Shown here piece after piece: positions 7,190 through 59,581 of a stretch of DNA of 64,000 nucleotides (its first letter is position 1; every line of letters starts with the position of its first letter). The notes under the pieces were generated by a model, which was given only the letters and a program-made list of their open reading frames with translations, was not told where the DNA came from and did no database searches. The translations under genes and the position numbers were made by a program. The stretch is from a virus: positions 64,001 to 128,000 of the IMG/VR virus record IMGVR_UViG_3300016471_001132; one strand, 5' to 3'.

Positions 7190-7460
7190 AAGGAGGTATT
7201 TCAACGATCTTGAGGCCATGGAAAGCCTCAAGATCCTCAATCATCTTTTGATAGTGCTGATGGTAGAAGTCGCGGATCTTCCACCAGTCTTTGGGCACAG
7301 TGACTCCGTCCATGGTACTTTGTAAAACCTGCTGTGTTTTGAAATCCAAGATCACAGCAGCGGTTTGGATGTCTCTGGTTCGAAGATTTTTACTGGCAGT
7401 GACTATTTCGTCTAGTTTACCAGTGGGTTTTCGGATATATTTCACTATAAAGTATCTCAT
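7152..7460 (-). CDS. Hypothetical protein
   Basis: 102-aa ORF coupled (ATGA) to the radical SAM gene. Confidence 0.55.
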   Translation of the reverse strand: MRYFIVKYIRKPTGKLDEIVTASKNLRTRDIQTAAVILDFKTQQVLQSTMDGVTVPKDWWKIRDFYHQHYQKMIEDLEAFHGLKIVEIPPSSPDTVPEPVQS

Positions 7461-8569
7461 TTACGATATTTGACCATGATTGATTGATAGGTATCTAAAT
7501 GTTTTGCTTTGGGGGCGCACAGCCCGCAAAAGCATGCTTGCTTTTGGCACTGGATCACTGGCATGCTGTCTTTTTCAAGATGGTGTTTGGTCCAATCTAA
7601 CAGATCTTGGCTATTGCTCAACGACCCAATCGGTCCCACGTTACCATCAAAGGACATCTTGCAATCTTTATTCACAAAGATTTCTTCAGTGATTTGTTTG
7701 ACATGTAGGAAAAATTCATTCACGCTACAGAACCAATTTGGAAATCTATTCTGCACGAACGATAGTCTAGAGGATCTGTCCTGGTCAAGACATACTTGGC
7801 GGCCGCCGCAGCAGGACCGACCGACAGCGGCCATGTTAACACTGGTTTCTTTGTCAAGTCTTGACAGATCAACTGTAGACTTGTAGCTCCGCTTGTTATA
7901 GAGTTTTTCGAAAAACATGATCTGCCTATTGTCATAGTTGAATCTGGTGGCTGTGATAGGATGGTCTATCTGCTTGGGGAGACATGCAATACCATGGTCA
8001 GCACACCATTGGACCATGGCTACAGAGAGATCAAATAACTCTCCTTTGTTGTGCATCATGGCTATACACTTCAATCTTGATCCATATTTTTGTATAGCCA
8101 ACAGATTTTTTTTAAACTGATCATGCTGTTTCTTACTATTTTGTGGATGAAAACTGACAGTGAATTCATCAACCAAAGGAATTATCTGTTCAAATTTTTT
8201 CGATGATACAATGGCGTTGGTAGTACAAGTCACAGTCAAGGGCCAACTTGTCTGGTAATCGGCATGGCGCTCTTTGATATATTGTAATATAGTGACTATA
8301 TCTGGATGATGCAGACTTTCTCCACCATACACGTTTATCACCACATCTCTTATGCCTTTGGCTTTTTTGCTCATATACAGATCAGTATAGGCCAACATAA
8401 AATCCACCGACTTTTTGCAACGATCCAGAGGCGGGTGTTTCGTGGAATTATCGTGGCCTGCGCAATAATCGCAATCCAGATTACATTTGAATGTCAATTC
8501 CCAATCTAATAGGAATGTCATCCTATTATTCGGATTTATTGCAGGTTCTAATACCAAAAAATCAGACAT
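7457..8569 (-). CDS. Radical SAM protein
   Basis: CNLDCDYC, YGGE, extra Cys clusters at the C-terminus; AT-rich. Confidence 0.9.
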   Translation of the reverse strand: MSDFLVLEPAINPNNRMTFLLDWELTFKCNLDCDYCAGHDNSTKHPPLDRCKKSVDFMLAYTDLYMSKKAKGIRDVVINVYGGESLHHPDIVTILQYIKERHADYQTSWPLTVTCTTNAIVSSKKFEQIIPLVDEFTVSFHPQNSKKQHDQFKKNLLAIQKYGSRLKCIAMMHNKGELFDLSVAMVQWCADHGIACLPKQIDHPITATRFNYDNRQIMFFEKLYNKRSYKSTVDLSRLDKETSVNMAAVGRSCCGGRQVCLDQDRSSRLSFVQNRFPNWFCSVNEFFLHVKQITEEIFVNKDCKMSFDGNVGPIGSLSNSQDLLDWTKHHLEKDSMPVIQCQKQACFCGLCAPKAKHLDTYQSIMVKYRK

Positions 8570-44025: not shown

Positions 44026-44138
44026 ATCTGCTCCTTTTTTAAACAATATACCTACATGATACAGAAATGGTAATTATTGGTCAATCTTGCTAGATTAGTG
44101 CTTACTAACCAAAAATCAGTAGAAACCACGAGTGATGT

Positions 44139-44156
44139 TGCATTGCATGGTAAATA
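44139..44156 (+). promoter_or_regulatory. PhaR-type palindrome plus late promoter box
   Basis: TGCATTGCA (44139-44147), 3 nt, then TAAATA (44151-44156). Confidence 0.6.
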
Positions 44157-44180
44157 CTGCTGATGACAAAGGAAAACAAT

Positions 44181-44321
44181 ATGAAACAAACCTGTAAAAA
44201 AATCTGGACATATCTCGTTTGCTTGGCTGAGAGTTTTGGTCACGCTCGTGCGGCCAGCGTTTTTGCCCGGCAAGGTCGCTACAAGATGGCCCAGCAAATC
44301 ATGAATCAAAAATGTTCATGA
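44181..44321 (+). CDS. 46-aa basic micro-protein
   Basis: Hand translation MKQTCKKIWTYLVCLAESFGHARAASVFARQGRYKMAQQIMNQKCS; AAGGAA SD. Confidence 0.65.
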   Translation: MKQTCKKIWTYLVCLAESFGHARAASVFARQGRYKMAQQIMNQKCS

Positions 44322-44449
44322 TGTTGAAATGGTTGGATGATTTACTGGGTCGTTGGACTCAGCATGAAATGGATCGTTGGTTTGATGGGATCAATCCTGA
44401 CTCTATCAAAGACATCGACAAATTTCTACGCTCAAAAGGATGGCAATGA
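44318..44449 (+). CDS. 43-aa micro-protein
   Basis: MMLKWLDDLLGRWTQHEMDRWFDGINPDSIKDIDKFLRSKGWQ; ATGA coupling. Confidence 0.55.
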   Translation: MMLKWLDDLLGRWTQHEMDRWFDGINPDSIKDIDKFLRSKGWQ

Positions 44450-44517
44450 TGTATTGGTGGCCCGTAACAGACGAAGAGTGGGAACAGTTGAACTATCCCA
44501 ATCGCAAACCCAATTGA
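44446..44517 (+). CDS. 23-aa Trp-rich peptide
   Basis: MMYWWPVTDEEWEQLNYPNRKPN; ATGA coupling. Confidence 0.5.
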   Translation: MMYWWPVTDEEWEQLNYPNRKPN

Positions 44518-44563
44518 TCTTCCGTTTGATTGACCACCCAGCCAGTGGCCAATAAATATCCAC

Positions 44564-45751
44564 ATGGATTGTAAGTTCAGCACCAATGGACTGGCTATTG
44601 ATTATTTTGGCACAGTCAAGCCCTGTTGTCTATTCCAATACGATAAAAATTTCCAGGACCAAAACAACATCAAAGATCTGGATGTATCTGGCTGGCATAA
44701 ATCTGAAAAAATCATCAGCATTACAAATTCTCTCGCCCAGAACCAGTGGCCAAAGGAATGCGGATTCTGCCAGCATACCGAGGCCAACGGCCGCGGCGAC
44801 AGCATGCGATTAAACGGTCTCTCTTCGTATGGGCATTATTCATCTCAAGACATAACCTTGGAAATCCGGGGAGGATCCACATGCAACTTTGCATGCCAGA
44901 CATGTTGGCCGCAGGCAAGTTCGCGCGTGGCAAAATTTTATCAGCAAGCCAAAATCCAGTTTACTCCCCCAGATAACATGGATTGGGATTTCCACCAACT
45001 GGATTCGGTCAAGCACAGGTTGAGGAATATAGTTTTACTCGGTGGAGAACCTTTCTATGACAAAAGATGTCTTGCGTTTCTAAAATGGTTGCTGACAAAT
45101 GATGTCCGTGCAGACATCACTGTCTTCACCAATGGATCAATGATCGATTGGCAATTTTTAGAAAGATTCAAAGGAAGAATCACATTGGTATTCAGCATTG
45201 ATGCCATTGGCAAACCTGCAGAGTATATTAGATTTGGAAGTGATTGGAGCACAGTTAAAAAAAATTACGATTTGTGTCGCTCGCGGACCGAGGTCGCCAC
45301 CAGGATAAACATAACTACCTCTCCTTACAATTACTTGTATCTCGAAGAGTTATTGAATTGGATCAGTCGAGATTGGCCGGAAGTGGTGTCATTTGGTCGT
45401 GCAGCAGAATCCAGAAACTCCATATACATGGACGAATCAATTTTCCGCGTCGAACAAAGAAGCGAAATCATCGAGAGTCTAATCCGGGCACAATATTTGT
45501 TGAAAGATAGCAAGATCGAAAGCATGCAAAAAATCAACGCTGCCAATGCGATTGGCAGTATCATCAAAAATCTGCGTCAGATGCCTTACAATGACGCTAA
45601 TCGTTTACAATTTGAAAAATTTATCGCTGACATGGACCTGATCAAAAAAATCAACATCAATGATTACTGTCCGGAGTTGGCCAGATATTTCGACATCAAT
45701 CCAACCATATTGGACAAGGTCTCTTCTGAATTTTTTGAATCTGATATATAG
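44564..45751 (+). CDS. Radical SAM protein with N-terminal SPASM/twitch-like Cys cluster
   Basis: C...G.VKPCC...C..C then CNFACQTC, GGEPF, FSID; TAAATA 44553-44558. Confidence 0.88.
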   Translation: MDCKFSTNGLAIDYFGTVKPCCLFQYDKNFQDQNNIKDLDVSGWHKSEKIISITNSLAQNQWPKECGFCQHTEANGRGDSMRLNGLSSYGHYSSQDITLEIRGGSTCNFACQTCWPQASSRVAKFYQQAKIQFTPPDNMDWDFHQLDSVKHRLRNIVLLGGEPFYDKRCLAFLKWLLTNDVRADITVFTNGSMIDWQFLERFKGRITLVFSIDAIGKPAEYIRFGSDWSTVKKNYDLCRSRTEVATRINITTSPYNYLYLEELLNWISRDWPEVVSFGRAAESRNSIYMDESIFRVEQRSEIIESLIRAQYLLKDSKIESMQKINAANAIGSIIKNLRQMPYNDANRLQFEKFIADMDLIKKININDYCPELARYFDINPTILDKVSSEFFESDI

Positions 45752-46848
45752 TTCAAAAGATTTGGGTCGTTCTTTGATATGAGTTTTTTGCTGATGTCGC
45801 TGTCTAAGATTTGCTTGATCCCATCAGACTTGGACAATCTCAGAAATAACTTGAAAATTTCAATATCTCTCAAAGGCGTAAATGTCAACGTGTTGCCAAG
45901 ATGCCAGTGTTGACAATCATTGGCGACAATATTGCACAAATAAGTCGCGAACTTCTCAAAACACATGCTATTCAATTCATCGTCTTTTTCTTGTTGCTCG
46001 AAAAGATTGATGTGTTTGTGCTGCAGGAAATAATCTCTGTGCAAGGTATTCGGATTTTTTTGTAGTTCATCTAGTATATTGGTGCCGTGATACTTTAACC
46101 ATAGATTTGCTGTCACTGGACTTCTTAACATGAATTCATCTCCAGGAGCTCCGCTGGACAAGACACAGGGATCTGTCCAATGATGAATCTGACTGTATCC
46201 CCAAAAATTTTGTTTCAAGCGGCATTGGTTACGACACCAAAATTCATCCCACTCCACATGCTGTTGAAAAATCATTTGATATCGATCAGTGCTGGCCTTG
46301 ATGTAACTGAAAACCAACATGCTATCAATGCCTCCAGAGCAAAAAACTTTTAGAGGTAATTGATTATGTTGCAGAAATGCTCGAGTGCGGCGCGTGAGAA
46401 TATTATGTACTGTGTCAATGAGCTGATCGACTTGCAAAGTTTCTGTTTCGACCTTGCCAATGATGTCTATCTTACGCTCGGACATCTGTAAATCTTGATC
46501 TACACTTATGGTGCTGTCTGCCCATATTGTATATCCTTCTGGGAATAAATTAGACAATGACTTCTGGTCATGCCAAATTGTAAACCCTCTATAGAGATTG
46601 GTCTTGATCTCTATGTTTTTTGATACAATGTCATAATCAAAGATACAAAAATTTCCTGTATGTTCTTGATCCTTTATATAAGACAAACTGTCTTTGATGT
46701 ACGAGTCATCTATGTAACCTTTATACACAAAGACATGCCCATCCTGTTCCAGTCTGTGCCAACCTGCATCGGTATTAAGGATGAGATTGCCCAATGGATG
46801 ATGATATGGGAATAACAGATTGGTCGACTTGGACAACGAAAAAAACAT
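45664..46848 (-). CDS. Asparagine-synthase-like PP-loop ATPase (degenerate Ntn domain)
   Basis: VFCSGGIDS, SGAPGDE, FTPL motifs; no N-terminal Cys. Confidence 0.7.
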   Translation of the reverse strand: MFFSLSKSTNLLFPYHHPLGNLILNTDAGWHRLEQDGHVFVYKGYIDDSYIKDSLSYIKDQEHTGNFCIFDYDIVSKNIEIKTNLYRGFTIWHDQKSLSNLFPEGYTIWADSTISVDQDLQMSERKIDIIGKVETETLQVDQLIDTVHNILTRRTRAFLQHNQLPLKVFCSGGIDSMLVFSYIKASTDRYQMIFQQHVEWDEFWCRNQCRLKQNFWGYSQIHHWTDPCVLSSGAPGDEFMLRSPVTANLWLKYHGTNILDELQKNPNTLHRDYFLQHKHINLFEQQEKDDELNSMCFEKFATYLCNIVANDCQHWHLGNTLTFTPLRDIEIFKLFLRLSKSDGIKQILDSDISKKLISKNDPNLLNYISDSKNSEETLSNMVGLMSKYLANSGQ

Positions 46849-47438
46849 TATTTGTCTCTTGACGATATTACCTGATCAGCCAGTCCATACTCCACAGACT
46901 GTTGGGCAGTCATGAAGTTGTCTCGTTCCATGTCCGCTTTCAATTCTTCGTGTGTTTTGCCCGTGTGCCGCACATAGATATCAGTGAGCACTTGTTTCCA
47001 CCGTAGCAATTCACGAGCTTGAATCTCAACATCAGTGGCCTGGCCTGACGCACCGCCTAGGGGTTGATGGATCATGTGCCTGGCATTGGGAAGTATTTGA
47101 CGATGCCCTTTTTCTCCTGCTGCCGCCAACAATGAGCCCATACTTGCTGCCTGGCCCATGACTATGGTATGCACTGGGCACTTGATGAATTGCATGGTGT
47201 CGTAGATGCTCATACCAGCTGTGACGCTTCCACCTGGGCTGTTGATGTAAAAATGGATGGCTCGATCAGGATCTTCTGATTCTAAAAACAGCATCTGCGC
47301 CACGACCAAACTGGCTGTGTGTTGATTGACTTCACCGTCCAGCATGATGATCCTGTCGCGTAGCAAACGACTGTAGATATCATAACTGCGTTCGCCCTTG
47401 GAAGTGTGTTCTAAAACGATTGGCACTAGATTTGGCAT
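46848..47438 (-). CDS. clpP: ATP-dependent Clp protease proteolytic subunit
   Basis: [42 protein letters not shown]. Confidence 0.97.
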
Positions 47439-48427
47439 TGTATTCCTTGTTGTACTTTGGTTTGTATTTGTTGCACATATCGATCAAACTGCTGTCTATT
47501 GTATTGTATCTTGGGTTGCAAGTCAACTAATTTCTTTTGGAAATAACTCACTGGTTGCCGGCATAAGATCTGCAAAAACGGAACCATGTTGTGATAGGAT
47601 GCGAGATCCAAATCTGTGATGTCTTGGAAGTCCAGCACATAAGTCTCGAATCCTCTCTGGGTCAACCAAGGTACAGCACCGTCTCGGGCATAGACCAAGA
47701 ATGGTCTCAAGCCCAAGATGGGCTTGTAGATCTTTTCGCTGACAAATCTAGTTTTGCGTAAATTGAACTGTGTTTCTGTGATCACGTCCAAGAAAATCCT
47801 GCGCCAGTTGTCAGGGTGGCCCAGACTCATGATGTCGTTGACGATACCAGTTTGCTCAATGCCGGGGTTGGGATTGAGATTGAGATCCGATACACCTGTG
47901 TCCTGCGGTAACAATCTCTGCGCCGGTTCTCCGTCTTGTCTGGAACCCATGCTGACCAAACCTTGGTCCACGACTCCAGCTGCGACCATGGCATCGTACA
48001 ACTGTTGGCGATGGTGGTGAGGTTTTCTATTTAGGCACATAAACGGCGTATCTATGGCTGTGGCATCCGACAGATCGCCATGAGGTACCCTTAGCCATCG
48101 ATCCACGGCCAAGGCCCAGAAATCTATTTCGTCCGGGCCAGCATAGTACCCCACGGATCTGATATCATCAGCAAATGGCTGGAATCGGTCGGCGTGGCAA
48201 TTGGCTGCATCTATCATAGCCACGAGCACTATGCGATCAGGTCTGCTTGCTTCCAGGGCTTGCACAGTCTGTGCATGTGCCCAATCGCTGTACCAGGTGT
48301 TATTGACGATGACCGTAGAGGATGAATCCTCTGCGAAAGGGCGCAAATAAGCGGCCAGTATTTCGGCTTCGAACTTTTTTGTCTCTAATTCAGGACCCCA
48401 CCCATAATCATAAGTTTTTGTTATCAT
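47426..48427 (-). CDS. Glycosyltransferase-like protein (GT10/exostosin-type C-terminus)
   Basis: [14 protein letters not shown]...SEKIYKPI....PFLV. Confidence 0.55.
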
Positions 48428-49395
48428 CTGCGCCACTCTTTTATTTCTTCTAATATATTTCTATTGTATCGTGCGATTTCACTGGCTCTTTCCGACATCG
48501 CTGGTTGTATGTCCTGCATGGTCTGCCACATGGCTCGCCAGCGATCTGGCCCTTCCAGGTTATCATAACTTTCGTCCCAATGATCACTGTAAGTTTTGAA
48601 ACCATGGAGATCGCGCAATCTACTCAGGAAATTTTTTGGCCCATAGACCAATATGGGTTTTTCAGCCATGATGGGCCTGGCAGTTTTTTCGGTGGGGAAG
48701 AAAGAGTCCCCACGGGTGTAAGTTTCAGGAACTATCTCTATGCGGAACCGGGGATAGAAATCCAGTATGGTCTTGTTTGTCTCGGGCCGTTCAACGAACC
48801 TACGATATTGGTCAGTGATCTTTTTGCCGTCCAAGCTGGCCAATCGTATATCGTGCCGCCACTGTAGGAAGCCCTGGATTTGATTTGGCGTGACCCATTC
48901 ACTGACTTCTTCTTGATCATATCGCTGGATACCCATGGAATTGTTCATCATACTGAATAAAAACCGGTGTGGTTGTTCCAAGCAATCCCGCAATATCATG
49001 TCTCGTGCCACTGTGCGACGACCGATAAACAGCCCAAATAGCCGAGCATCTGGGTGTAATGCTGGAGTATCGCGCCAGTAATCTCGCAGCAAATCGCCCG
49101 ACAAAAAATGGCTGCGAAATGGCTGATTGTGTTGTCTGGTGGCGTTGATGTTTTCAAATGGTGTGTGTTCTACCACATTGGGATTGTTGACCAGTTTTAT
49201 GGAGCCTACTGACCTGCCTGTTTGATCACAGATGGCCAGTAATCTCTCAACGATGCCCGCAGCAGTGACACTGACACCCTCGGCTTGGAAATCAAGATAA
49301 ATGTCTTCTGATATGTCTGCGCTCCGTACGAGATCTTCGACTTCCTGGGGGTTGGTCCAATAATCGCCAAATAGGGTTATGGGTATAGTCAACAT
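48424..49395 (-). CDS. Glycosyltransferase-like protein, paralogue of the adjacent gene
   Basis: FIGRRT..R, IVPET...FFPTEKTARPI....PILV, FKTY...WDESYD. Confidence 0.55.
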   Translation of the reverse strand: MLTIPITLFGDYWTNPQEVEDLVRSADISEDIYLDFQAEGVSVTAAGIVERLLAICDQTGRSVGSIKLVNNPNVVEHTPFENINATRQHNQPFRSHFLSGDLLRDYWRDTPALHPDARLFGLFIGRRTVARDMILRDCLEQPHRFLFSMMNNSMGIQRYDQEEVSEWVTPNQIQGFLQWRHDIRLASLDGKKITDQYRRFVERPETNKTILDFYPRFRIEIVPETYTRGDSFFPTEKTARPIMAEKPILVYGPKNFLSRLRDLHGFKTYSDHWDESYDNLEGPDRWRAMWQTMQDIQPAMSERASEIARYNRNILEEIKEWRR

Positions 49396-49423
49396 ACCTT
49401 CTACTTACCGCGGTAAATACAGG

Positions 49424-50956
49424 ATGCGTGACATATTAGACAAACTCGACGGCATCACAGAAGCCACTCTGGAACCCAGCCAGATCATCAAATACCCTGA
49501 ACGATTTGATGCATTCATTTCACACATACAAGACCGACGCCCTTTTTACACTGACAAAGAAGGCACCGAAGTGATACTGGATCCCAGAGAAGCAGCACGA
49601 TTCTTAGATCTCCGTGAAAAAGGTCTTTTCCGGGGCGGTCTCAAAGGTCGAGATCTCCAGGGGAACGAATGGCCACTTAGCAGTTTCCGCAAAACAGCTG
49701 AATTCGGTGGTGCCAGCGCCAAGCCCGGTGAAGAAACTGATCCCACTAAAGTCAAAAAAGAAGGAGCTGCTCTCAAGCCGAGCCAGATAGCTATCACTGA
49801 TAAAAACATACCTATCAAAAGCCTGGGCAAACTCATAGTGCAAAATCCTGTATTAGAAAGCACCGATTACGGTCGTGCTGTGATTGAGATGGCACAGCAG
49901 ATCATGGCCGGGCAGGCTGCAGTGATCCCTGAAGAATTCCGCAAGAACGAGCAAATCAAAAAAGCCATCGTGGACTATGCAGGTGAATATCTAGGAGTGA
50001 TGAGTCTGTACTATGACACTTCTGAGTGGTTAGGCAGTGGAGATAAAAAAGCTGGATTTACTCAGTGGTTGGGAGGCGACATTGGTAGTTTAATAGTAAA
50101 CTTTCCCAGCGAGTCTAATACTGCGCTGGCCGATAGCTTCGCTGAAATCAAAAATGCCAAAACTGGCCATACCGTGTCGATCTCAAGTAAAGGTACCGGA
50201 GGAGGTGCACCACCAAGCATATCAAGCCTAAAAGTTCCAGAACATCTCAAAAGCAAACCCGAATACGAAACTGCCATCGACATCATAGAGCTTTGTAGCA
50301 ACAAGTCGATCCCCAATCCTAAGACCATAAGCCAAGTATTTCTAATGATGAACCTGCTGCATGAACGCATCCCTAATAAGATACCCAAACAATTCAATAA
50401 ATTCTTGCCATGGTCGCGCGATATCGTAGATCAGGTACAAAACAGTCTCAAGAACGGTACGGCCATGCCCAAATACCAAAGCCTCTTTGCTGACCTTGAC
50501 AGCAAAGGCAGCGACGGTGGCAAACTCACTTATGTGACCAAGACCGCAGTGATGAACATGGTCAACGGTGGTGAAGTTCCTGGATTCGAAGCAGTGGTCT
50601 TAGAGATACTAGATTATAACTTCATACAACAGTATGCCACTTATCAAGGCAACAAGACCGGAATAGTGGCTTTCAGCACACAGTGGCCAGCCAAGCTCGA
50701 TGGTCGTGTGACCATGGAAAGCAAGAGCGGTGGCACCGATCCTACCAAAGGCGGGTTCAGTTTCAAGCTCAGCCCCAAGAATGCACCTATGCCCACAGCG
50801 GACGAACTCATGGGCGACGATGAGAAACTAGACTTGCCCACTGCTAGTGCCGGGCCCGAAGGTGATCTGTCTGATTACGAGGCACCGAGACCAACAATAA
50901 AAGCTCGTAGAGAGCCTCGGGGTGATGTTAGTGCCCTAGGACGCAAACGTCGTTAA
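49424..50956 (+). CDS. Large late protein, possible PD-(D/E)XK-like nuclease / head-internal protein
   Basis: TAAATA 49414-49419; leader MRDILDKLDGITE; P-S-E..N..LADS...ISISSKG. Confidence 0.55.
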   Translation: MRDILDKLDGITEATLEPSQIIKYPERFDAFISHIQDRRPFYTDKEGTEVILDPREAARFLDLREKGLFRGGLKGRDLQGNEWPLSSFRKTAEFGGASAKPGEETDPTKVKKEGAALKPSQIAITDKNIPIKSLGKLIVQNPVLESTDYGRAVIEMAQQIMAGQAAVIPEEFRKNEQIKKAIVDYAGEYLGVMSLYYDTSEWLGSGDKKAGFTQWLGGDIGSLIVNFPSESNTALADSFAEIKNAKTGHTVSISSKGTGGGAPPSISSLKVPEHLKSKPEYETAIDIIELCSNKSIPNPKTISQVFLMMNLLHERIPNKIPKQFNKFLPWSRDIVDQVQNSLKNGTAMPKYQSLFADLDSKGSDGGKLTYVTKTAVMNMVNGGEVPGFEAVVLEILDYNFIQQYATYQGNKTGIVAFSTQWPAKLDGRVTMESKSGGTDPTKGGFSFKLSPKNAPMPTADELMGDDEKLDLPTASAGPEGDLSDYEAPRPTIKARREPRGDVSALGRKRR

Positions 50957-51528
50957 GCAAGGTCGGCCACTGCGTCGCAGATATTATACTGCAACGCTTC
51001 ATCTGCTGACAGATAAACATCCTGTGGTGGCAGCAATACCTTCTTGATAGTATCATCATCTAGCCCAGTAGTGATGCGATAGTGCTCGACCATGCGTTTT
51101 TCAATCAACTGGAACTCTTTAACAGTGGCAAATAATTCATGCGATTTGCCTTTGCTGCCCCACGAAAACTGGTGGCTTAGGATAGAAGTGTTGGGAGTGA
51201 GTATTCTACGACCCTGGGAACCTGTCAGGAAGATCAACAGTCCAGAACTGGCAATAGATCCCAATCCCACAGTCTTGATGGGTATCTTGCTGGATCGCAT
51301 GACATCAATCAGGGCAAACGCATCTTCAAGACTGCCGCCGTCACTGCAGATCATCAGCAGGAGTTCTTTGTATTTTTTCTTGCGTACATGATTTTCGTGC
51401 AGGATCCATTCGATCACGGGTTTCACAGAATCAGAATCAATGTCGTTCATGAGCACATAGATGCCATGGTCCAGCAGGGCCTCGCCTGGGGTAGCATATT
51501 CTATTGAGCTTTTGTCAGGTGTGTTCAT
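50953..51528 (-). CDS. Second, divergent ClpP-like serine protease
   Basis: ICSDGG, GSIASSG (Ser), ILSHQ (His), D.YLSADEAL.Y.ICD. Confidence 0.8.
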   Translation of the reverse strand: MNTPDKSSIEYATPGEALLDHGIYVLMNDIDSDSVKPVIEWILHENHVRKKKYKELLLMICSDGGSLEDAFALIDVMRSSKIPIKTVGLGSIASSGLLIFLTGSQGRRILTPNTSILSHQFSWGSKGKSHELFATVKEFQLIEKRMVEHYRITTGLDDDTIKKVLLPPQDVYLSADEALQYNICDAVADLA

Positions 51529-51604
51529 AGGGCGATGAAGTGTTCGAGTAAAGTATGTAGATTATAAAGCACTTTTTGAAATGCTTCTACTACTTATCAT
51601 GCCA

Positions 51605-52654
51605 TTATCTAGGGCATTGATTACCCGGAACCGCAGTGACTTCTGCCCGATCGATGTTTTGTATGGCCAGATTCTGTGTATTGACCAGCAAATTATAGGT
51701 TTTCCTGTGACCAGGCAGCAATTTCACACGTCCACCGCCCACTTCTACATAGTACCAAGGAGCGTAGGAACTCTGGCTTATTTCTGGTAGATCAAAACAG
51801 TCGCGATACACAGCCCGACCCGCAGAATCCATCAAACTCATCATCAGCATGGGACGCACAGAGACCATGGCTTTGTCAAAAATCCAATAGGTAGTCTCGT
51901 CATCGAAATAGGCTTTTTCACTGCCTATCATGACTTCTAGCCTGGCACGGCAATTGGACAGCCAGCTGTTGCAATCCGGGCGTGGATTCACCGTCTTGAC
52001 TGCTTCAGCCAAGCTGGCGGTAAACTTGGAATTCCATGCCACATGTACCGGGACCTGCAGGAAGACCACTCTGTTGTCGGCCAAGACCCGAGTCTGCCCC
52101 ACCGAGATGTCAAACGCTCGAGCAGGAAAATCAGCCAACACCGCTGACAGCACACGATCTGCACCTTGTTTCTCTCTGTGGAAACTGTCGATCTGTGCGG
52201 ATATCCTGCCACCTTCCACACGTCCAGCGTCACGACTCTCGCTTAACAGCCGATCTGCTATGCCAGATTTTCGCACCCACACATCGATGTCGATTGAGAC
52301 CCGCTGCCCATCATACTGGCGATCCACGATCTTGAAATCGTGTATGTGACCGGAACTGTAGTTGATGATCTCGTTACGGCGCACTTCACCATCTCTGACA
52401 TTGGTATGGCTCAGTAGTAGGCTACCCACAGCCTGTTCCACTGCCAATCGGAAGGCTTGATCTCTGGCATCTTGCTCGTCTCGCCCCACTGCACGGACCC
52501 GGACATGATAGACTTCTTCTCTGTCCATCATGACCCATTGGCCGATCTGCAAAACTATGGTCAACGGGCTGGGAGCCCAGAAGGACGGAGCAGCCTGCAC
52601 AGGTGATGCCAGAAGACCAGCTATCACCAAGGCACACAAACCACGCTTCATCAC
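51605..52654 (-). CDS. Exported protein with LPP20/FlgT-N-like domain
   Basis: Signal peptide (VQA); G...ARDQAFRLAVEQAVG...EII..SSG.I..F. Confidence 0.6.
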   Translation of the reverse strand: MMKRGLCALVIAGLLASPVQAAPSFWAPSPLTIVLQIGQWVMMDREEVYHVRVRAVGRDEQDARDQAFRLAVEQAVGSLLLSHTNVRDGEVRRNEIINYSSGHIHDFKIVDRQYDGQRVSIDIDVWVRKSGIADRLLSESRDAGRVEGGRISAQIDSFHREKQGADRVLSAVLADFPARAFDISVGQTRVLADNRVVFLQVPVHVAWNSKFTASLAEAVKTVNPRPDCNSWLSNCRARLEVMIGSEKAYFDDETTYWIFDKAMVSVRPMLMMSLMDSAGRAVYRDCFDLPEISQSSYAPWYYVEVGGGRVKLLPGHRKTYNLLVNTQNLAIQNIDRAEVTAVPGNQCPR

Positions 52655-53289
52655 TTCATCCGGTTGCGGATGAATTCAGCGGTGGCCTGGTCTTTCTCGC
52701 TCCATTGATACACTGCTACATACAACTTGCCGTCATCTCTGGTACCCTCACGGATTTTGCGTACACCAATGAGCCGACCCTGTGAAGTGATTGACGTGAT
52801 AGTGGTGATCACGGTATTGTCTACACGCTCTGCGATGCGCCTGCTGGTGTTGTCAGATGAGCCGCTGGCATCTTGGCTAAGTTCAGCTTCTGTGAAACTG
52901 ATGGTACCATCGGCGGTCTTGAACTTGTTGAGAGTGTTGTCTTGGGCTTTTTCCAGGGCCTTGCCGATGATCTTGATCCGTCGTTCGGTCTTGGTATTGT
53001 CGCCATACAAGAACTGTGTGAGCTTGGCTTTGGCATCTAGTTCAGCCACCACAGCAAACTGCCCTTTCCAGGCCGGTGCCACGCCCGTGACTTCGATCCG
53101 ATCCAGATTACCCATGAGGGTGTAATAGATTTTGACGCCGGCATCTTCAAATTCCGTGGCCACTCGCTGATCCTTGACGGGTGTGGTGGTGTCACTAGGT
53201 GGTGTCATCCCAGTCTGGGTATTTTTATTGAACACACCACAACCCGTCAAGGCAGTGGTCAGAGCCAAACATACCAATGTCTTCTTCAT
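52651..53289 (-). CDS. Lipoprotein (LPP20-like)
   Basis: Lipobox LTG-C; A...A...L.QFL and L.GVR motifs. Confidence 0.7.
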   Translation of the reverse strand: MKKTLVCLALTTALTGCGVFNKNTQTGMTPPSDTTTPVKDQRVATEFEDAGVKIYYTLMGNLDRIEVTGVAPAWKGQFAVVAELDAKAKLTQFLYGDNTKTERRIKIIGKALEKAQDNTLNKFKTADGTISFTEAELSQDASGSSDNTSRRIAERVDNTVITTITSITSQGRLIGVRKIREGTRDDGKLYVAVYQWSEKDQATAEFIRNRMK

Positions 53290-53417
53290 TGTCTTCCCTT
53301 TCCGGCTATCATGCCGCCTACACTTTTGAGATCATCACCGGCACCCGATAGAGCACCGCCCAAGGTACCACAAGCCGTCAAGGCCATGGTGACCAGCAAT
53401 ACAGATAGATACTTCAT
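53286..53417 (-). CDS. Entericidin EcnA/B-like 43-aa lipoprotein
   Basis: Hand translation MKYLSVLLVTMALTACGTLGGALSGAGDDLKSVGG; GGAGG SD; ATGA coupling. Confidence 0.65.
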   Translation of the reverse strand: MKYLSVLLVTMALTACGTLGGALSGAGDDLKSVGGMIAGKGRQ

Positions 53418-53446
53418 CGGGTCCTCCGACTTTTGAACATAGTGTA

Positions 53447-53475
53447 ATATTAAAGGAAATGACTTTATTGGTCAA
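53447..53475 (-). promoter_or_regulatory. sigma70 promoter of the lipoprotein operon
   Basis: TTGACC-N17-TAATAT. Confidence 0.75.
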
Positions 53476-53480
53476 CCAGC

Positions 53481-53891
53481 CTATCGCTGGGCATTTTGGG
53501 CAGCATCGCCTATAGGATCAAATTGGACACCTTGTGCTACCAAATTCACAGCAGTGGAACCTATCACTTCGGCCGCTATTCGTCGGTCGCTTTTGGCTTC
53601 TCCACCACAGTTTTGGGCGATTCGTCTAGCGTCAAGATGATCTTTGGTTTCCATTCCGGCATTTCCAACCAAAACAGGAATTAGTAGTGTGCCGCCGCTG
53701 GCTATCACTGCCAATGGACTGGCGATCATACGCATCATTTTATAGTCGTCGTTGGGTTTGGCTTCCTTCACCGGAAGCTGACATTTCAGAGTGCGATAGT
53801 CATCATTGTGTTGCAGGCTTTGCGCGGTACGAGTGCTATGGCTAGCACAGCCGGTTAGAATCAAAAGAGGTAAAAGAAAAATCCCACGCAT
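53481..53891 (-). CDS. Lipoprotein
   Basis: Lipobox LTG-C; promoter TTGACA-N18-TATAAT (53898-53927), ATG 7 nt downstream. Confidence 0.7.
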   Translation of the reverse strand: MRGIFLLPLLILTGCASHSTRTAQSLQHNDDYRTLKCQLPVKEAKPNDDYKMMRMIASPLAVIASGGTLLIPVLVGNAGMETKDHLDARRIAQNCGGEAKSDRRIAAEVIGSTAVNLVAQGVQFDPIGDAAQNAQR

Positions 53892-53934
53892 ACTGTAATT
53901 ATAGTATGGGTGGGATTGGATTGTCAACCGCTAT

Positions 53935-54168
53935 TTAGATAGCGATGGCTTTGCGAACAGCTTCAGCGTAGGCCTTGACAGCGGCGTTTTGTGCCCGGGC
54001 GAACTCCATCGAAGCTTCAGCAACGGCTTCAGCAGCAGCTTTGGCTTTGGCATCGGTAATGTAACCGATGGCTGTTTTGGTGTTCTTTTCTACTTCGGCC
54101 AGCATTTTGTCGGCGTCGAAGAGTTTGGCAGCGTCAAATTTAGAAAAATCGATTTTGGTGAAGTCCAT
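53935..54168 (-). CDS. Phasin-like (PHA granule-associated) small helical protein
   Basis: 77 aa, Ala/Lys/Glu-rich amphipathic helices with Phe-rich N-terminus; AAGGAAA SD; TGC-N3-GCA box upstream. Confidence 0.5.
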   Translation of the reverse strand: MDFTKIDFSKFDAAKLFDADKMLAEVEKNTKTAIGYITDAKAKAAAEAVAEASMEFARAQNAAVKAYAEAVRKAIAI

Positions 54169-54243
54169 TTTAGTTTCCTTAGTTAAGCGAACTACAGAAT
54201 TGGATGCCCGCCCCATGCGGCACATCATGTTCTGATTGTAACA

Positions 54244-54260
54244 TATATATTGCGTTGCAA
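54244..54260 (-). promoter_or_regulatory. PhaR-type palindrome plus late-like TATATA box
   Basis: Minus strand TTGCAACGCAA followed directly by TATATA. Confidence 0.55.
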
Positions 54261-54337
54261 CAATAGTTATCTACGCATATTATTACCAAACCATTGGATT
54301 TTGGCTAAGTAGTTTTACCAAAAACGGAGGAATCAAA

Positions 54338-54718
54338 ATGGCCTGGACCGCTACCCTAAACATCGTCAACGATACAGCATACAATCTCACAGTAAACCAC
54401 AACACCGTGGGCGATCTCACTACCATCGCTCCCGGCGGCAACTGGAGCTACACCACATCTGATCCCAACAACACCAACGCTCTGCGTTTTTGGTCTGTGC
54501 CCAATCAGTGGTACATGCAGGGTTCAGTGGCCTATGGTCCATTGGCCGGTGTGTACATGGATCGTGGCTGGATGGCCCCAAACGATCAGACCATCCGCTT
54601 GGATGCTGATGTCAACGGGACCACTTTCACTCAGACGGAGAACGGTGGTGCAACGGTGGTGCCTTGGAACGGATTCGAATCCGGTGGCACCATCGACATG
54701 AAGTTTTCCAAGATTTGA
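54338..54718 (+). CDS. All-beta protein of unknown function (aegerolysin/lectin-like pattern)
   Basis: GGAGG SD; alternating beta pattern, Trp/Asn/Thr-rich; N-terminal LNIVNDTAYNL. Confidence 0.55.
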   Translation: MAWTATLNIVNDTAYNLTVNHNTVGDLTTIAPGGNWSYTTSDPNNTNALRFWSVPNQWYMQGSVAYGPLAGVYMDRGWMAPNDQTIRLDADVNGTTFTQTENGGATVVPWNGFESGGTIDMKFSKI

Positions 54719-54734
54719 CGGTAAATACTAGACT

Positions 54735-55082
54735 ATGAACATCCGCGAAGTCTTAGACAAGTTGGACGAAATTAGCCGTAGAGATTTCCTCAAAGGTGCT
54801 GGTGCGGCAGCAGCTGGTGCTGCTCTATCTTCGATGCCGAAAAGAGCTCAAGCCATGACTTCGGCAAATTGTCAACCTCCCAGTATCCAGGACCAGATAC
54901 GCAATGCCGTGCGATCGGGTGCAGTACCTCAAGGTAATCGTTATTCGGCTCAGGTCAGAGCCGGATGGGTTTATGTTGTCTATGTCGACAATAAAACCTA
55001 TGACATCAGTCACCAGATTCCTCAATGCGGCAAACAAACCATGAAGGCCGCGGAGGAAATAGGCAGACTGATGGGTAATTAA
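54735..55082 (+). CDS. Late protein with N-terminal leader plus twin-arginine (Tat) signal
   Basis: TAAATA 54722-54727; SRRDFLK, Gly/Ala h-region, AQA cleavage site. Confidence 0.7.
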   Translation: MNIREVLDKLDEISRRDFLKGAGAAAAGAALSSMPKRAQAMTSANCQPPSIQDQIRNAVRSGAVPQGNRYSAQVRAGWVYVVYVDNKTYDISHQIPQCGKQTMKAAEEIGRLMGN

Positions 55083-55786
55083 ACCGTCCGGACCTGGGCC
55101 AAGCCTAGTTCTTCCAGCCTGCGAATGTAGAAGTAGCCTAGATCAAACTCCCACCACTTTTGACTGAGTTTCGCACTGGCTGGATCGTCGTGATGGTTGT
55201 TGTGTAATTCTTCACCACCGATGATGATGCCCCAAGGAAAAATGTTGCGGCTACAATCCTTGGTGTTGGTGTTGCGATAGCCCCACCAGTGTCCCACACC
55301 ATTGACCACACCTGCGGCCCAGAATGGAATCCAAGCCATCTGCACCAACCACATGACCAGTCCCCAGCCATTGAACAGAGCCACTTGGATGATCAACAAA
55401 GACAAGTATCCCATGTTGGGATAACGGCTATAGACATTACGCTCTATCCAGTCATCGGGCGTGCCTTTGCCGTACTGCTCGATCATCTTCTTATTGCGTG
55501 TAGCGTTGGCATATAACCAAGCACCAGCGAACAACACTTTGAGGATACCATGCACCTGTGGGCTGTGTGGATCTTGTCGTGTTTCGCAGGCCTGATGATG
55601 CTTGCGATGTATGGCCACCCATTCTTTGGTGACCATTCCAGTAGTGAGCCATAACCAGAAACGCATAAAGTGACTGATTGCAGGATGAAGTTCCACTGCT
55701 CGGTGTGCTTGGCTCCTGTGTAGGAAAATGGTTACACTTGCGATAGTGATGTGTGTCATCACTAATACGATTACTAATTCTAACAT
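55079..55786 (-). CDS. Acyl-CoA (delta-9-type) fatty acid desaturase
   Basis: His boxes LHRSQAH, HRKHH, ELHNNHH; WWEFD.G. Confidence 0.92.
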
Positions 55787-55926
55787 GTTTTACTCCTTTG
55801 GCAGCGTTGGCTGCAGTATTTCACTTGAGGCCAGTCTCTCGACCACTTACGCCTCCAAGTGAATGGTCTCCCGCACGTTTCACATGTTTTGGTAGGGAGA
55901 CTCTTTTTATTCCCTGGCCAGGTCAT
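55780..55926 (-). CDS. DUF2256-family Zn-finger protein
   Basis: [18 protein letters not shown]...W..VKYCS.RC. Confidence 0.85.
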
Positions 55927-56555
55927 ACTCCTGCGGCCAACACTATTTTGCAGATATGTTCCAATCGCTCGATGTGTTCGAATGCACGCCAAGGCGACGT
56001 GTCTATGGCCACTACTCCGTGGCCTTTGATGCCGATGATGTCGGCAGCGGTGAATCCGTGTGAGTTTAACCCAAAACTCTCAAAGCTCCTGTCAGCTAAC
56101 TCTTGGCTTATGGGAGGTACCTCTCCTACGTTGGGGCCTACTCGGGTATACCTACTGAGTTCAGGAAAATCGTGGGCCAGTTCGGCTAACTCAATACCAC
56201 GATGCATGGCAGCTACACAGTATGTGGGATGCAGGTGAACCACCACACGCACATCTTCAGCATGTTGTCCCATACGGCGTTGCAGTCCAAAGTGCAAAGG
56301 TATTTCGCCCGAGGGCCGAAGTTCTGCACTGATTGCGGTATAGCTCATCTCCTGCCATAAGGGTACAGGACCATCAATAATTTTTATCTTCTTGAACTGA
56401 TCGGGTTGCAGAGTCTGTTTGCGTACCCCTGATGGTGTGATGTAGAAGTGATCGCGATCGTGATGACGGATCGAAACATTACCATCGCGGCTGGTGATCC
56501 AGTTTCGACGATAGCCTTCTATCAAGGTTTCACAAATGGTCTCAAGCACGGCCAA
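55923..56555 (-). CDS. Class II aldolase/adducin family protein
   Basis: DGNVS, ITPSG, PSGE...H, VHLHP, GHGV. Confidence 0.9.
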
Positions 56556-57759
56556 TCTCCTCTGCTATGATCTCTGCGGTACCAGCGCCCAAGGTCCAGC
56601 CCAAGTGTCCATGGCCAGTGTTGAGCCAAACACCATCTCTGCGGCCTGGCTTGATAAGGGGCATCATGCTGGGTGTCATGGGACGGAGTCCTGCCCAGGG
56701 ACGGCAATCTTCAGTGCTGACACCAGGAAGATTCCGTTCCGTCCAACGCAAGAGTGGATCAATCCTGTCTCGGCGTATGTCCAAGTTCCAGTCATCCAGT
56801 TCTGCTGTGCCTGCTACTCGCAGTCTGTTGCCCAGGGTCGATGTCACAATCTTAGCAGCATCGTCTAACAGGCTTGTCACAGGTAAGCAAGAGGGATCCT
56901 GTACCTGTAGTGTGATAGAGTAGCCCTTGACTGGGTATACAGGGATGCTCTCACCAAACATCTTTCCAGTTTCCGCAGCACGGCTGCCGGCACATATCAC
57001 CACATCTGTGTACTCATACCAGTCAGTGATGTAATCACTTTGGATATGCACGCTCCACTTGTTGGGCAAGCGCCGGGCTTCTTTCACACTGGCACGGTAG
57101 CGGAATCGGACTCCGCGGTCTCCTAACCAGCGTGCCAGATTGGCTGTGAACTTGTGTATGTCACCCATGCCATCTGTGGCAGTATAGGTTCCGCCGATGA
57201 TGGTGGAGTCTTGTTTCAGTGCTGGTTCGGCATCAAACACACCATCTCGATCCAGGATCTCTCGATGCACACCGGCCATCTCGTACAAATAGCAGGATCG
57301 TTTGGCTGATTCAAAATAGTTGGCATCACGATAGATGTGCAGGATGCCAGTTTGGCTGTGATCAAACTTGATGCCAGTGGCCTTCATGATGTCAGCATAT
57401 GCTTCGCGACTCCCTAGTCCCAGTTCGATGGTTTTAAGTGTGTTGGTTTCATATCGACCCATCACGGTGTTGGCCATGAATCCGGCTATCCATTTCAACT
57501 TGGGCAGGCTGGGATAAGGACGGAACAACAGTGGGGCATCTTTCTGCCACATCCATCGGAAACCTTTTTTGACATTCGCCCAAGTGGTCCAAACTTCGCT
57601 GTTTGAAACACTAAGTTGTCCACCATTGGCATAACTGGTCATCATGCCAGCATAGCGTTCGGCTTCTATCACTGTGACATCATAGCCTCGCTTGTAGAGA
57701 CTGTAGGCTGTGGTTACGCCGGTGATGCCGGCTCCAATTACTAGTATCTTTTTAGTCAT
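56542..57759 (-). CDS. dadA: D-amino acid dehydrogenase (FAD)
   Basis: GAGITG, SYANGGQLS, YPVKGYSIT, LRVAGTAE, GLRPMTP, NTGHGHLGWT. Confidence 0.9.
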   Translation of the reverse strand: MTKKILVIGAGITGVTTAYSLYKRGYDVTVIEAERYAGMMTSYANGGQLSVSNSEVWTTWANVKKGFRWMWQKDAPLLFRPYPSLPKLKWIAGFMANTVMGRYETNTLKTIELGLGSREAYADIMKATGIKFDHSQTGILHIYRDANYFESAKRSCYLYEMAGVHREILDRDGVFDAEPALKQDSTIIGGTYTATDGMGDIHKFTANLARWLGDRGVRFRYRASVKEARRLPNKWSVHIQSDYITDWYEYTDVVICAGSRAAETGKMFGESIPVYPVKGYSITLQVQDPSCLPVTSLLDDAAKIVTSTLGNRLRVAGTAELDDWNLDIRRDRIDPLLRWTERNLPGVSTEDCRPWAGLRPMTPSMMPLIKPGRRDGVWLNTGHGHLGWTLGAGTAEIIAEEIGRA

Positions 57760-57924
57760 AATCAGATGATAGCATGACTGCGATCAACCCGCAACCTATG
57801 GCTATTGCTCCAAGATTAGTATATATGGGATTGTAGTTTAAACATCTCATAGCCGTTTCCACGCAGAGATATTCGCCTGCCAGCAGCAGGATTCCAAACA
57901 ATATGGTCAGGAACCCTGCGTACC

Positions 57925-59208
57925 TCAATGGAACTGTTCTTCTTCGGTGCTACCTTTGAGAGCCTGTGTGGAGGCGTTGGCTTCGATGGTAGTTGTGACA
58001 GCATCAAAGTAGCCGGTACCAACTTCACGCTGGTGCTTGACTGCTTCAAAACCTCTGCTGGCGTCTGCGAATTCACGCTGTTGCAGATTCACGAATGCTG
58101 TCATGCCTTCTCTGGCGTATCCGTGTGCGAGGTCGAACATGCCGTGATTGAGTTGATGGAAACCAGCTAGAGTGATGAACTGGAACCGGTAGCCCATGGC
58201 ACCCAGTTCTCTTTGGAAGCGGGCGATTTCATCATCGTTGAGATTCTTCTTCCAGTTGAAGCTGGGGCTGCAATTGTAGGCCAGCATCTTGCCCGGGAAC
58301 TGTTGATGGATGCCTTCGGCAAACTTGCGAGCAAACTCCATGTCAGGCACACCAGTCTCGCACCAGAGTAGGTCGGCATAGGGTGCGTAGGCCAAGCCAC
58401 GTGCTAGGGCTTGGTCGAAGCCTTTGCGGGTGCGGTAGAATCCTTCAACAGTGCGTTCGCCTGTGAGGAAGGGTCGGTCGCGATCATCAATGTCTGATGT
58501 AACCAGGTCGGCTGCTTCTGCATCAGTTCTAGCAAGCAATACAGTAGGAACGCCAAGCACGTCAGCAGCAAGACGAGCAGCAGTGAGTTTGTTGATGGCT
58601 TCTTGAGTTGGTACAAGTACTTTTCCTCCCATGTGTCCGCATTTTTTCACGGACGCTAATTGATCTTCGAAGTGTACGCCCGATGCGCCGGCTTCGATCA
58701 TGGCCTTCATGAGTTCAAATGCATTGAGCACTCCACCAAATCCGGCTTCGGCATCGGCCACGATGGGCGCGAAGAAGTCGGTGTCACCGTGGCCTTCCAT
58801 CCACTGGATCTGGTCCGCACGTGTGAAGGTGTTGTTGATTTTTTTCACCACTGCCGGCACCGAGTCCACGGGATACAGGCTTTGGTCGGGATACATCTCG
58901 CCGGCTGAATTGGCATCACCGGCCACTTGCCAACCGCTCATGTATATGGCCTTGAGTCCGGCCTTGACCTGTTGCAGAGCCTGCATGCCAGTCATGGCAC
59001 CCAATGTATTCACATAGTCTTCAGTCTGCAGCAGTTTCCACAGTTTCTCAGCCCCACGGCGAGCCAGGCTGTGTTCCACAGGATTGCTGCCTTGCAGTCT
59101 GACCACCTGGTCGGCTGTGTATTCTCGTTTGATGCCATTCCACCGGGGATTGGTGCTCCAGTCCTGCTGGATCTGATAGGCTTTCCAACTGCGGGTTTTT
59201 TCACTCAT
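57925..59208 (-). CDS. aceA: Isocitrate lyase
   Basis: [65 protein letters not shown]. Confidence 0.97.
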
Positions 59209-59230
59209 CTTGCTCTCCATGTTTGTCAGG

Positions 59231-59250
59231 TATTTATTGCGATGCAATAA
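59231..59250 (-). promoter_or_regulatory. PhaR-type palindrome plus late promoter box of aceA
   Basis: TTATTGC-ATC-GCAATAA (59234-59250; 7-bp arms) overlapping TAAATA (59231-59236). Confidence 0.65.
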
Positions 59251-59311
59251 TCACAAAATCTATCATTATTTACAGCCAGATTAAATACACCTACATTTTA
59301 AGGAGATCCAG

Positions 59312-59581
59312 ATGGAACTGTATATCGCTATTGCTGTTGTCTTAGTCGTTGGTGGCTATTTTATCTATAAGCGTGCTGACAAAAATAAAGACGGCAAGGT
59401 CGACGCTGTAGAAGCCAAGGCTGCTGTAGAAGAAGTCAAAGTAGTGGTTCAGGAAGCCAAGACACAGGTCAAGAAAGCCGCTGTCAAAGCCAAGGCCAAC
59501 ATGGGCGCCAAGACTCGCGCCGCTGTCAACAAAGCCACTACCAAAAAGCCGACTGCTAAGAAACCTGCCGCTAAGAAGTAA
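59312..59581 (+). CDS. Membrane-anchored protein with EF-hand loop and histone-H1-like Lys/Ala tail
   Basis: N-terminal TM; DKNKDGKVDAVE; KKPTAKKPAAKK; TAAATA 59282-59287 and AAGGAG. Confidence 0.65.
   Translation: MELYIAIAVVLVVGGYFIYKRADKNKDGKVDAVEAKAAVEEVKVVVQEAKTQVKKAAVKAKANMGAKTRAAVNKATTKKPTAKKPAAKK

Follow-up and report, generated by a model that had tools for sequence, protein, structure and literature searches.

Candidate operators of the host regulator PhaR at three promoters of an uncultured freshwater giant phage

Some phages carry the binding sites of host regulators before their own genes, such as the PhoB boxes that precede cyanophage pstS and phoA, the NtcA sites of T4-like cyanophages or the LexA boxes of temperate phages. 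In bacteria, PhaR, a repressor that responds to granules of polyhydroxybutyrate (PHB), binds palindromic operators, of which a footprint-based example is the site TGCRNYGCASMA of Bradyrhizobium diazoefficiens, with the core TGCRNYGCA (PMC6201568), and another the Ralstonia eutropha palindrome YTKNTGCRNYGCANMAR, conserved at positions 1-4 and 7 (PMC12849132). At the footprinted phaP1 promoter of R. eutropha, one PhaR site lies just upstream of the -35 element and another around the start (PMC12849132), and PhaR also acts as an activator, for instance at phaP3 in R. eutropha (PMC12849132) and at pdhA and pckA in B. diazoefficiens (PMC6201568). Here, we present the analysis of a 64,000-nucleotide stretch of viral DNA (bases 64001-128000 of the 136,094-bp IMG/VR virus record IMGVR_UViG_3300016471_001132; G+C 48.8%), hereafter the window, in which three palindromes of this type adjoin the promoters of an isocitrate lyase gene (aceA), of a gene for a small helical "phasin-like" protein and of a trio of micro-open reading frames (micro-ORFs). 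From their sequence and position, we read these palindromes, with a probability of about 0.65, as operators of the PhaR of Burkholderiales hosts carried by a jumbo phage.

The record is about 39% complete (CheckV) and relatives with the same genes span 315-340 kb. The carrier is a jumbo phage of ~350 kb related to PA5oct, the closest isolates by clamp loader being PA5oct-like Pseudomonas jumbo phages (57% identity), and PA5oct relies on host RNA polymerase (PMC7318152). Among the products encoded in the window are a virion structural protein that carries tail-fibre and baseplate domains, a T4-type clamp loader and many uncharacterized proteins, and most genes of the record have no assigned family. 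A megablast of the region against phage records returned no match. Near-identical sequence was found in freshwater metagenome runs from several studies, all of them of DNA and none of RNA, and the group is one of uncultured freshwater giant phages.

Palindromic boxes and the host PhaR operator

The three TGC-N3-GCA palindromes that an earlier note on this DNA had described beside TAAATA or TATATA are all present exactly as quoted, each with the core TGC-R-N-Y-GCA. At the promoter of the micro-ORFs, the core TGCATTGCA occupies positions 44139-44147 of the plus strand, within a PhaR-type box (44134..44152, plus strand) whose left half-site is perfect and whose right flank is degenerate, and a promoter-like TAAATA box (44151..44156, plus strand) lies 3 nt past the box core. 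At the promoter of the phasin-like gene, the core TGCGTTGCA (54251-54259) belongs to a box (54246..54264) common to two divergent genes for proteins of 77 and 126 amino acids (aa). At the aceA promoter, the core TGCGATGCA (59238-59246) sits in perfect 7-bp arms (TTATTGC/GCAATAA), in a box (59233..59251) between aceA and a divergent 89-aa gene, with the TAAATA box of aceA (59231..59236, minus strand) 1 nt past the core. All of these boxes abut or overlap the core promoter, at 1-3 nt from TAAATA or over a predicted -35 element.

TAAATA is a genuine upstream signal in this genome, as it stands just before a Shine-Dalgarno (SD) sequence and ATG start in 20 of its 57 copies (35%), against 0-20% for permuted hexamers. 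The promoters it marks have neither a conserved -35 element nor upstream conservation, and the operons they head include that of the virion structural protein. Their assignment to a late class, a label coming from the earlier note alone, is putative, and no late-promoter motif comparable with TAAATA was found in the PA5oct literature. The palindrome is restricted to few of these promoters, as that note had observed: only 2 of 27 carry the box and the remaining 25 lack it. The genome-wide count that the note had proposed gave a divided answer, the core by itself not being enriched (11 occurrences of TGCRNYGCA in 136,094 bp, against ~8 expected) but 3 of the 11 cores adjoining a TAWATA box. The composite pattern TTGC-N3-GCA-N0-7-TAWATA, which was chosen post hoc, matched the window three times, where 0.04 matches were expected, and none of 100 shuffles gave as many.

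A candidate fourth site (G000:13009) was judged doubtful for its non-canonical spacing. There, outside the window (G000:C1:12990-13009), ATGTTGCAggaTTGCAA forms a perfect left half-site, but the TTGCA that comes next does not stand at the proper distance; a TAAATA follows 11 nt downstream and precedes a gene for a nicotinamide adenine dinucleotide (NAD)-dependent epimerase/dehydratase.

For an independent description of the host operator, we turned to Burkholderiales, whose isocitrate lyases are, among cellular ones, the closest to that of the phage (for example Aquabacterium, Rubrivivax, Inhella and Caldimonas; 79% identity), and collected phasin loci from 33 genomes that are nearly all Burkholderiaceae. 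In 32 of these 33 loci, the promoter is arranged as a first box, a cTTGCAAt -35 element, a TATACT-like -10 element and a second box, which is the layout of the footprinted R. eutropha phaP1 promoter. A 19-mer weight matrix was built from 67 host boxes, with no phage sequence included. Across the 136,076 positions scanned in the record with this matrix, the highest score fell on the phasin-like site (18.6 bits) and the second highest on the aceA site (14.1 bits), values that are not significant when taken alone; the next-best position reached 9.7 bits and the micro-ORF site came at rank 16 (5.0 bits). The phage sites fit the host operator at 13-15 of 15 positions, unselected flanks included, and those of the window agree with 13-14 of the 15 inner positions of the consensus, whose core is flanked by T at -7 and A at +7 and by K at -6 and M at +6.

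The flanks were compared among 16 distinct phage sites, picked only by their core and adjacent TAAATA, and 333 control cores. A T at -7, a position that took no part in the selection, is found in all 16 sites against 27% of the control cores. Of these sites, 11 have A at -8 and 10 have G at -6, and within the core position -1 is R in all 16 and position +1 is Y in 13, the right flank being confounded by the neighbouring TAAATA. The unselected left flank of the phage sites reproduces the host consensus. At -5, T is present in 15 of the 16 phage sites, whereas the hosts favour C.

Conservation in related phages and at host genes

The boxes are conserved in related phages, at the same three promoter classes in the four related giant-phage contigs that were scanned whole (G001; G002, of 316 kb and 91% complete; G004, of 90 kb; and G005), a check that the earlier note had called for. 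In G004, exactly three matches reach at least 10 bits, and these are the promoters of the micro-ORFs (13.2 bits), of the 77-aa gene (20.8 bits) and of aceA (18.4 bits). The same pattern is seen in G005 (14.5, 25.2 and 16.1 bits), in G002 (14.3, 16.3 and 10.9 bits) and in G001 (22.0 and 15.0 bits), and the orthologous micro-ORF boxes of relatives score 13-20 bits. No regulator gene was consistently linked to the boxes in this whole-contig scan of relatives.

The box is also kept upstream of aceA in a wider set of 80 IMG/VR loci encoding relatives of the phage isocitrate lyase. Where these genes have their own TAAATA promoter, a TGC-N3-GCA box always lies 1-7 nt upstream of it, in surroundings that have diverged. 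Of the 54 distinct sequences upstream of phage aceA, 9 scored at least 10 bits, each with its box next to a TAAATA, compared with 13 of the 4709 control windows drawn from these loci (odds ratio 72, p = 7e-13). This Fisher p-value overstates the evidence because the aceA loci are related to one another and hence phylogenetically non-independent. Independently of aceA, when the phasin-like cassettes of IMG/VR were anchored on their leader hairpin (described below), the box was found 25-37 nt upstream in 10 of 11, compared with a single one of the 54 other loci that share the hairpin 17-mer.

On the host side, the 300 bp preceding aceA were scored in 78 Burkholderiales loci, alongside 1526 control windows. 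A box of at least 14 bits was present in 20 of the loci but in a single control window, and one of at least 10 bits in 47% of loci against 1.25% of controls, these boxes lying 60-220 nt upstream of the gene (loci L117-L196). Since Burkholderiales aceA genes carry the box, the phage reproduces an aceA-PhaR link that seems to exist in the host lineage, and in many Burkholderiales aceA would be predicted to form part of the PhaR regulon. PhaR itself (PF07879) is encoded in 5 of the 5 Burkholderiaceae genomes checked that share the two-box arrangement of the phasin promoter, and no match to its domain came from the record or from any of the contigs G001-G005, the 91%-complete G002 among them.

Genes behind and around the boxes

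The phasin-like gene (77 aa; 53935..54168, minus strand) belongs to a family seen only in viral or metagenome contigs. It is expressed from a conserved cassette in which the box, a TAAATA-like stretch, TACAAT or TATAAT, a 9-bp 5' hairpin, TCGCTTAAC and a strong SD sequence follow in this order. The hairpin of the 5' untranslated region (UTR), GAUGUGCCGCAUGGGGCGGG (54207..54226, minus strand), has a 9-bp stem in which three pairs are kept through two-sided changes, and is present in all cassette relatives. The cassette drives the 77-aa family in the present genome, G004, G005, L084 and L009, and an unrelated family of 91-97 aa in G001, G002 and L006, BLASTP giving no alignment between the two. 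In 7 of 8 cassette loci, TTGCAN or TTGTGC, the left half of the box, is followed after 17-18 nt by TAYAAT, which suggests a sigma-70-like promoter with its -35 element inside the operator; in the present genome, the pairing is TTGTTG-17-TACAAT. The conserved -10-like element of the 77-aa gene being the sigma-70-like TACAAT (54235..54240, minus strand), this site is better read, from its sequence, as a host-type promoter than as the late TATATA promoter proposed in the earlier note.

The leader hairpin (ATGCCGCAYGGKGCGGG) is shared with numerous unrelated phage contigs (91 IMG/VR stretches, some possibly by chance), in which it is preceded by a TATAAAT box but by no PhaR box and followed by genes for proteins of 85-91 aa (MSEEVNN...QLSLQDIATMVQIIDICSKRGGFEGPEL). 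Among aquatic phages, it may represent a 5'-UTR module of wide distribution. Just past the stop of the 77-aa gene, a perfect sigma-70 consensus (TTGACA-18-TATAAT, 12/12; 53898-53927, minus strand), is directly preceded by a TAAATA and points into a stretch in which the sole ORF is a doubtful one of 148 aa with a TTG start.

The use of a host PhaR operator, as the earlier note had suggested, is partly supported in silico, by the operator match beyond the core and by its conservation; no support was obtained for the supposed homology of the 77-aa protein to phasins, for which hidden Markov model (HMM) searches and profile comparison were negative. A profile search of 1.8 billion proteins returned 45 matches, of which the majority were small proteins without a name and none belonged to a named phasin family, and tblastn against phage isolates gave no match. 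The AlphaFold2 (AF2) model is a helical hairpin (helices 19-35 and 40-76; predicted local distance difference test, pLDDT, 82), consistent with a small helical protein, a feature that is not specific, and Foldseek of this model against the PDB retrieved only generic helical hairpins (E > 2). Among distant members of the 77-aa family, 2 of 26 match Phasin_2 at E = 0.038, well below significance, and a few distant members match Phasin_2, ApoLp-III or Perilipin at E 0.02-0.04. In the ESM atlas, the named clusters nearest to the 77-aa protein are Phasin_2 (0.85), PHB_acc (0.82) and PHA_synth_III_E (0.79), and both families share the same three nearest annotated clusters (0.79-0.86). These atlas neighbours and weak matches are leads rather than evidence of homology.

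Two of the boxes also face divergent genes. Opposite the 77-aa gene, the 126-aa gene (54338..54718, plus strand) would be read from a plus-strand promoter, TTGCAA-17-TATTAT, whose -35 element (TTGCAA) lies inside the same box, and it is box-adjacent in G002 and L009 as well. Its predicted product is an all-beta protein (AF2, pLDDT 93.7) with 114 relatives of 53-94% identity, all unnamed; no Pfam family was found for it, and tblastn against phage isolates gave no match. The beta-sandwich model shows a putative likeness to the aegerolysin fold, with Z scores of 9.3-9.6 to IP-1A, Cry34Ab1 and ostreolysin A over ~100 residues at 2.5-2.8 A and of 8.4 to RahU, while Foldseek gave E = 3e-4 with a template modelling (TM) score of 0.43. 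Opposite aceA, the 89-aa protein (59312..59581, plus strand) combines a hydrophobic helix at its N-terminus with a DKNKDGKVD motif and a tail rich in Lys, Ala and Pro, KKPTAKKPAAKK, that presumably recalls those of PhaM and PhaF; its homologues are divergent to box-bearing promoters in G001, G002, G004 and G005. Just downstream of the 126-aa gene, a 115-aa protein (54735-55082, plus strand) carries a clear twin-arginine translocation (Tat) signal (PF10518, 3e-9).

The micro-ORFs are, judging from their sequences, real genes. The first (46 aa; 44181..44321, plus strand) belongs to an "...ARAAS..ARQG.Y" family conserved in G002, G004, G005 and L086, the second (45 aa; 44312..44449, plus strand) starts within the end of the first, and the third (23-25 aa; 44440..44517, plus strand), WWPxTDEEWEQLNYPxRKPN, has a near-identical peptide in G002. 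A second micro-ORF family, of 35-37 aa, lies behind strong boxes in L043, L048, L051, L110 and L111. Searches of Pfam and NCBIfam assigned no Pfam family to the micro-ORFs and returned nothing above noise. A DUF3563 link was rejected, as there was no Pfam match and the box stands at only 1 of 9 host DUF3563 genes. The window also contains two radical S-adenosylmethionine (SAM) genes (44564-45751, plus strand; 7457-8569, minus strand), the first of which, with a TAAATA 5 nt before its ATG, encodes a twitch-domain protein (N_Twi_rSAM, 192 bits against a 170-bit cut-off). A reading of the micro-ORFs as precursors of ribosomally synthesised and post-translationally modified peptides (RiPPs), matured by the adjacent radical SAM enzyme, was likewise set aside, as this linkage exists only here and in L086/L087 and not in G002, G004 or G005.

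The aceA gene (57925..59211, minus strand) encodes a full-length isocitrate lyase equivalog (NF011645 over residues 5-427, 791 bits against a 562-bit cut-off; PF00463, 2e-108). The genes downstream of it (55079..57759, minus strand) encode in turn a DadA-like dehydrogenase dependent on flavin adenine dinucleotide (FAD; 56542-57759), a member of the class II aldolase family (55923-56555) and a DesA-family desaturase (55079-55786), and these three genes may be co-transcribed with aceA. The desaturase (235 aa) covers only positions 11-242 of a 385-position model and is either a short form or truncated. Elsewhere in the window, ClpP-family proteases are encoded by two genes less than 4 kb apart (46848-47438 and 50953-51528, both on the minus strand), and one of these proteases is close to cellular ClpP (NF001368, 313 bits).

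Candidate control by host PhaR, rival explanations and known systems

In the mechanism that we propose, each box would place PhaR on a core promoter, at a distance of 1-3 nt before TAAATA in the case of aceA and the micro-ORFs and over the sigma-70-like -35 element at the cassette. Without free PHB granule surface, PhaR would occupy the boxes and host RNA polymerase would be blocked. PHB granules would titrate PhaR off the boxes and release the phage promoters, upon which isocitrate lyase, the small, putatively amphipathic helical proteins, the micro-proteins, the aegerolysin-like protein and the protein with the Lys/Ala tail would be made. The carbon-metabolism genes of the phage, and possibly granule-directed genes, would then track the carbon-storage state of the host. 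From PhaR binding, repression and relief by PHB to granule coating, carbon routing and the roles of the products, these steps are what we infer from the arrangement of the boxes and genes.

Several points weigh against this proposal. Matrix score alone is not significant, since Markov shuffles attain 18.6 bits in 24 of 300 cases and their second-best score attains 14.1 bits in 47 of 300, and the micro-ORF site of the present genome reaches only 5.0 bits; the case therefore rests on position and conservation, the latter measured in loci that share ancestry. The distance from box to TAAATA is not fixed but ranges from 1 to 7 nt. On the protein side, the 77-aa protein and three relatives had no Pfam or NCBIfam phasin match, even at E <= 10, the 91-97-aa family gave nothing above noise in the same databases, and two hhalign profile comparisons of the 77-aa family with host PhaP returned probabilities of 0.1% and 3%. 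PHB depolymerases (PF06850, PF10503) were not found on the phage contigs searched, so that PHB mobilisation would rely on host enzymes. In addition, the G+C content of the phage (49%) is well below that of most candidate hosts and, as PhaR can also activate, the control might have the opposite sign.

One alternative is that a phage-encoded DNA-binding protein of another family reads the palindrome, its likeness to the host operator being due to convergence or mimicry. The available sequence covers only 39% of the genome and most of its genes could not be assigned to a family, promoter-overlapping palindromes are the usual form of phage repressor operators, and the T at -5 (15 of 16 sites) departs from the C of hosts. 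This explanation nevertheless appears unlikely in view of the agreement with the host operator at 13-15 of 15 positions, flanks that were not selected included, of the presence of the same box at host aceA and phasin genes, and of the searches having revealed neither a PhaR-type domain in the 91%-complete relative nor a regulator gene consistently linked to the box. We also give little credence to the possibility that PhaR binds as an activator, or that replicating phage copies act as a sponge de-repressing host phasin and PHB genes. Activation by PhaR at phaP3 in R. eutropha and at pdhA and pckA in B. diazoefficiens would fit, as would the lack of a -35 element at TAAATA promoters, where a bound factor could recruit the polymerase. 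However, the boxes lie over the -35 element and spacer or touch a -10-like box, which is the position of the repressing phaP1 sites, and a spacing of 1-7 nt is unusual for an activator contacting polymerase, so that steric repression, as at phaP1, seems likelier than activation; three sites per genome would also make a weak sponge.

The palindromes might finally reflect chance, back-to-back -35-like TTGCAA hexamers of divergent promoters, or inert host DNA captured with aceA. The core count at expectation and matrix scores that shuffles can reach are compatible with chance, and the TTGCAA halves do serve as predicted -35 hexamers. Against this, the box is kept at three unlinked promoter classes across diverged phages, flank positions beyond any -35 hexamer are conserved, and the half-sites of aceA and the micro-ORFs are too near to TAAATA to act as its -35 element; this three-way conservation and the flank match make chance or a pure -35 function very unlikely. 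Captured host DNA fares no better, as boxes are likewise found before genes for which viral contigs are the only known source. Binding by host PhaR is the best-supported reading.

A broader version of it, which we find tempting but rather doubtful, would give the phage its own PHB-granule toolkit, made of two interchangeable phasin-analogue families, an aegerolysin-like surface binder, a protein with a PhaM/PhaF-like tail and the micro-proteins. Wired to host PhaR together with isocitrate lyase, this toolkit would let the phage sense and remodel granules and feed stored carbon into its progeny, mirroring the host PhaR regulon, aceA included. If host PhaR does control these promoters, widespread uncultured freshwater giant phages would read the PHB state of their hosts, timing a glyoxylate-shunt enzyme and granule-type proteins accordingly, and stored polymer would be a resource exploited by viruses. 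The boxes would also provide a sequence-based clue to the host (PhaR-bearing Burkholderiales) for phages without a cultured one, and the two new small protein families are offered as candidate phasin analogues. No report of PhaR operators or of a PHB-linked regulon in phages was found in the literature searched.

Like the host PhaR operators of R. eutropha phaP1 and phaP3 and of B. diazoefficiens, the phage sites have the core TGC-R-N-Y-GCA, the T/A at position 7 and the G at -6, overlap the core promoter and are linked to genes for small, putatively amphipathic proteins of granule type and to genes of central carbon metabolism. They differ in being carried by a jumbo phage genome of virulent type, with one box per promoter instead of the two-box layout of hosts, often with TAAATA as the partner element, with T rather than C at -5, and with binding that is predicted. 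The phage proteins resemble phasins (Phasin_2, PF09361) in being small, Ala-rich and helical, and in standing behind a PhaR-type box and a strong leader, but they are about half the length of host PhaP, have relatives only in viral or metagenome contigs and lack an HMM match. As in the T4-type late promoter (TATAAATA, gp55-dependent), a phage TAAATA box without a -35 element is enriched just upstream of genes. Isocitrate lyase was already known from 98 huge phages (bioRxiv 10.1101/2025.02.27.640493), and the present locus resembles these in the enzyme, in belonging to freshwater huge phages and in having no adjacent malate synthase; that work lists the gene only, with no regulation and no link to a PhaR box or to phasin-like genes. 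As for the PhoB, NtcA and LexA boxes of other phages, they likewise place the site of a host factor on phage promoters so that auxiliary genes follow host physiology, whereas here the signal would be carbon storage, conveyed by PhaR, and the regulon would include small proteins found only in phages.

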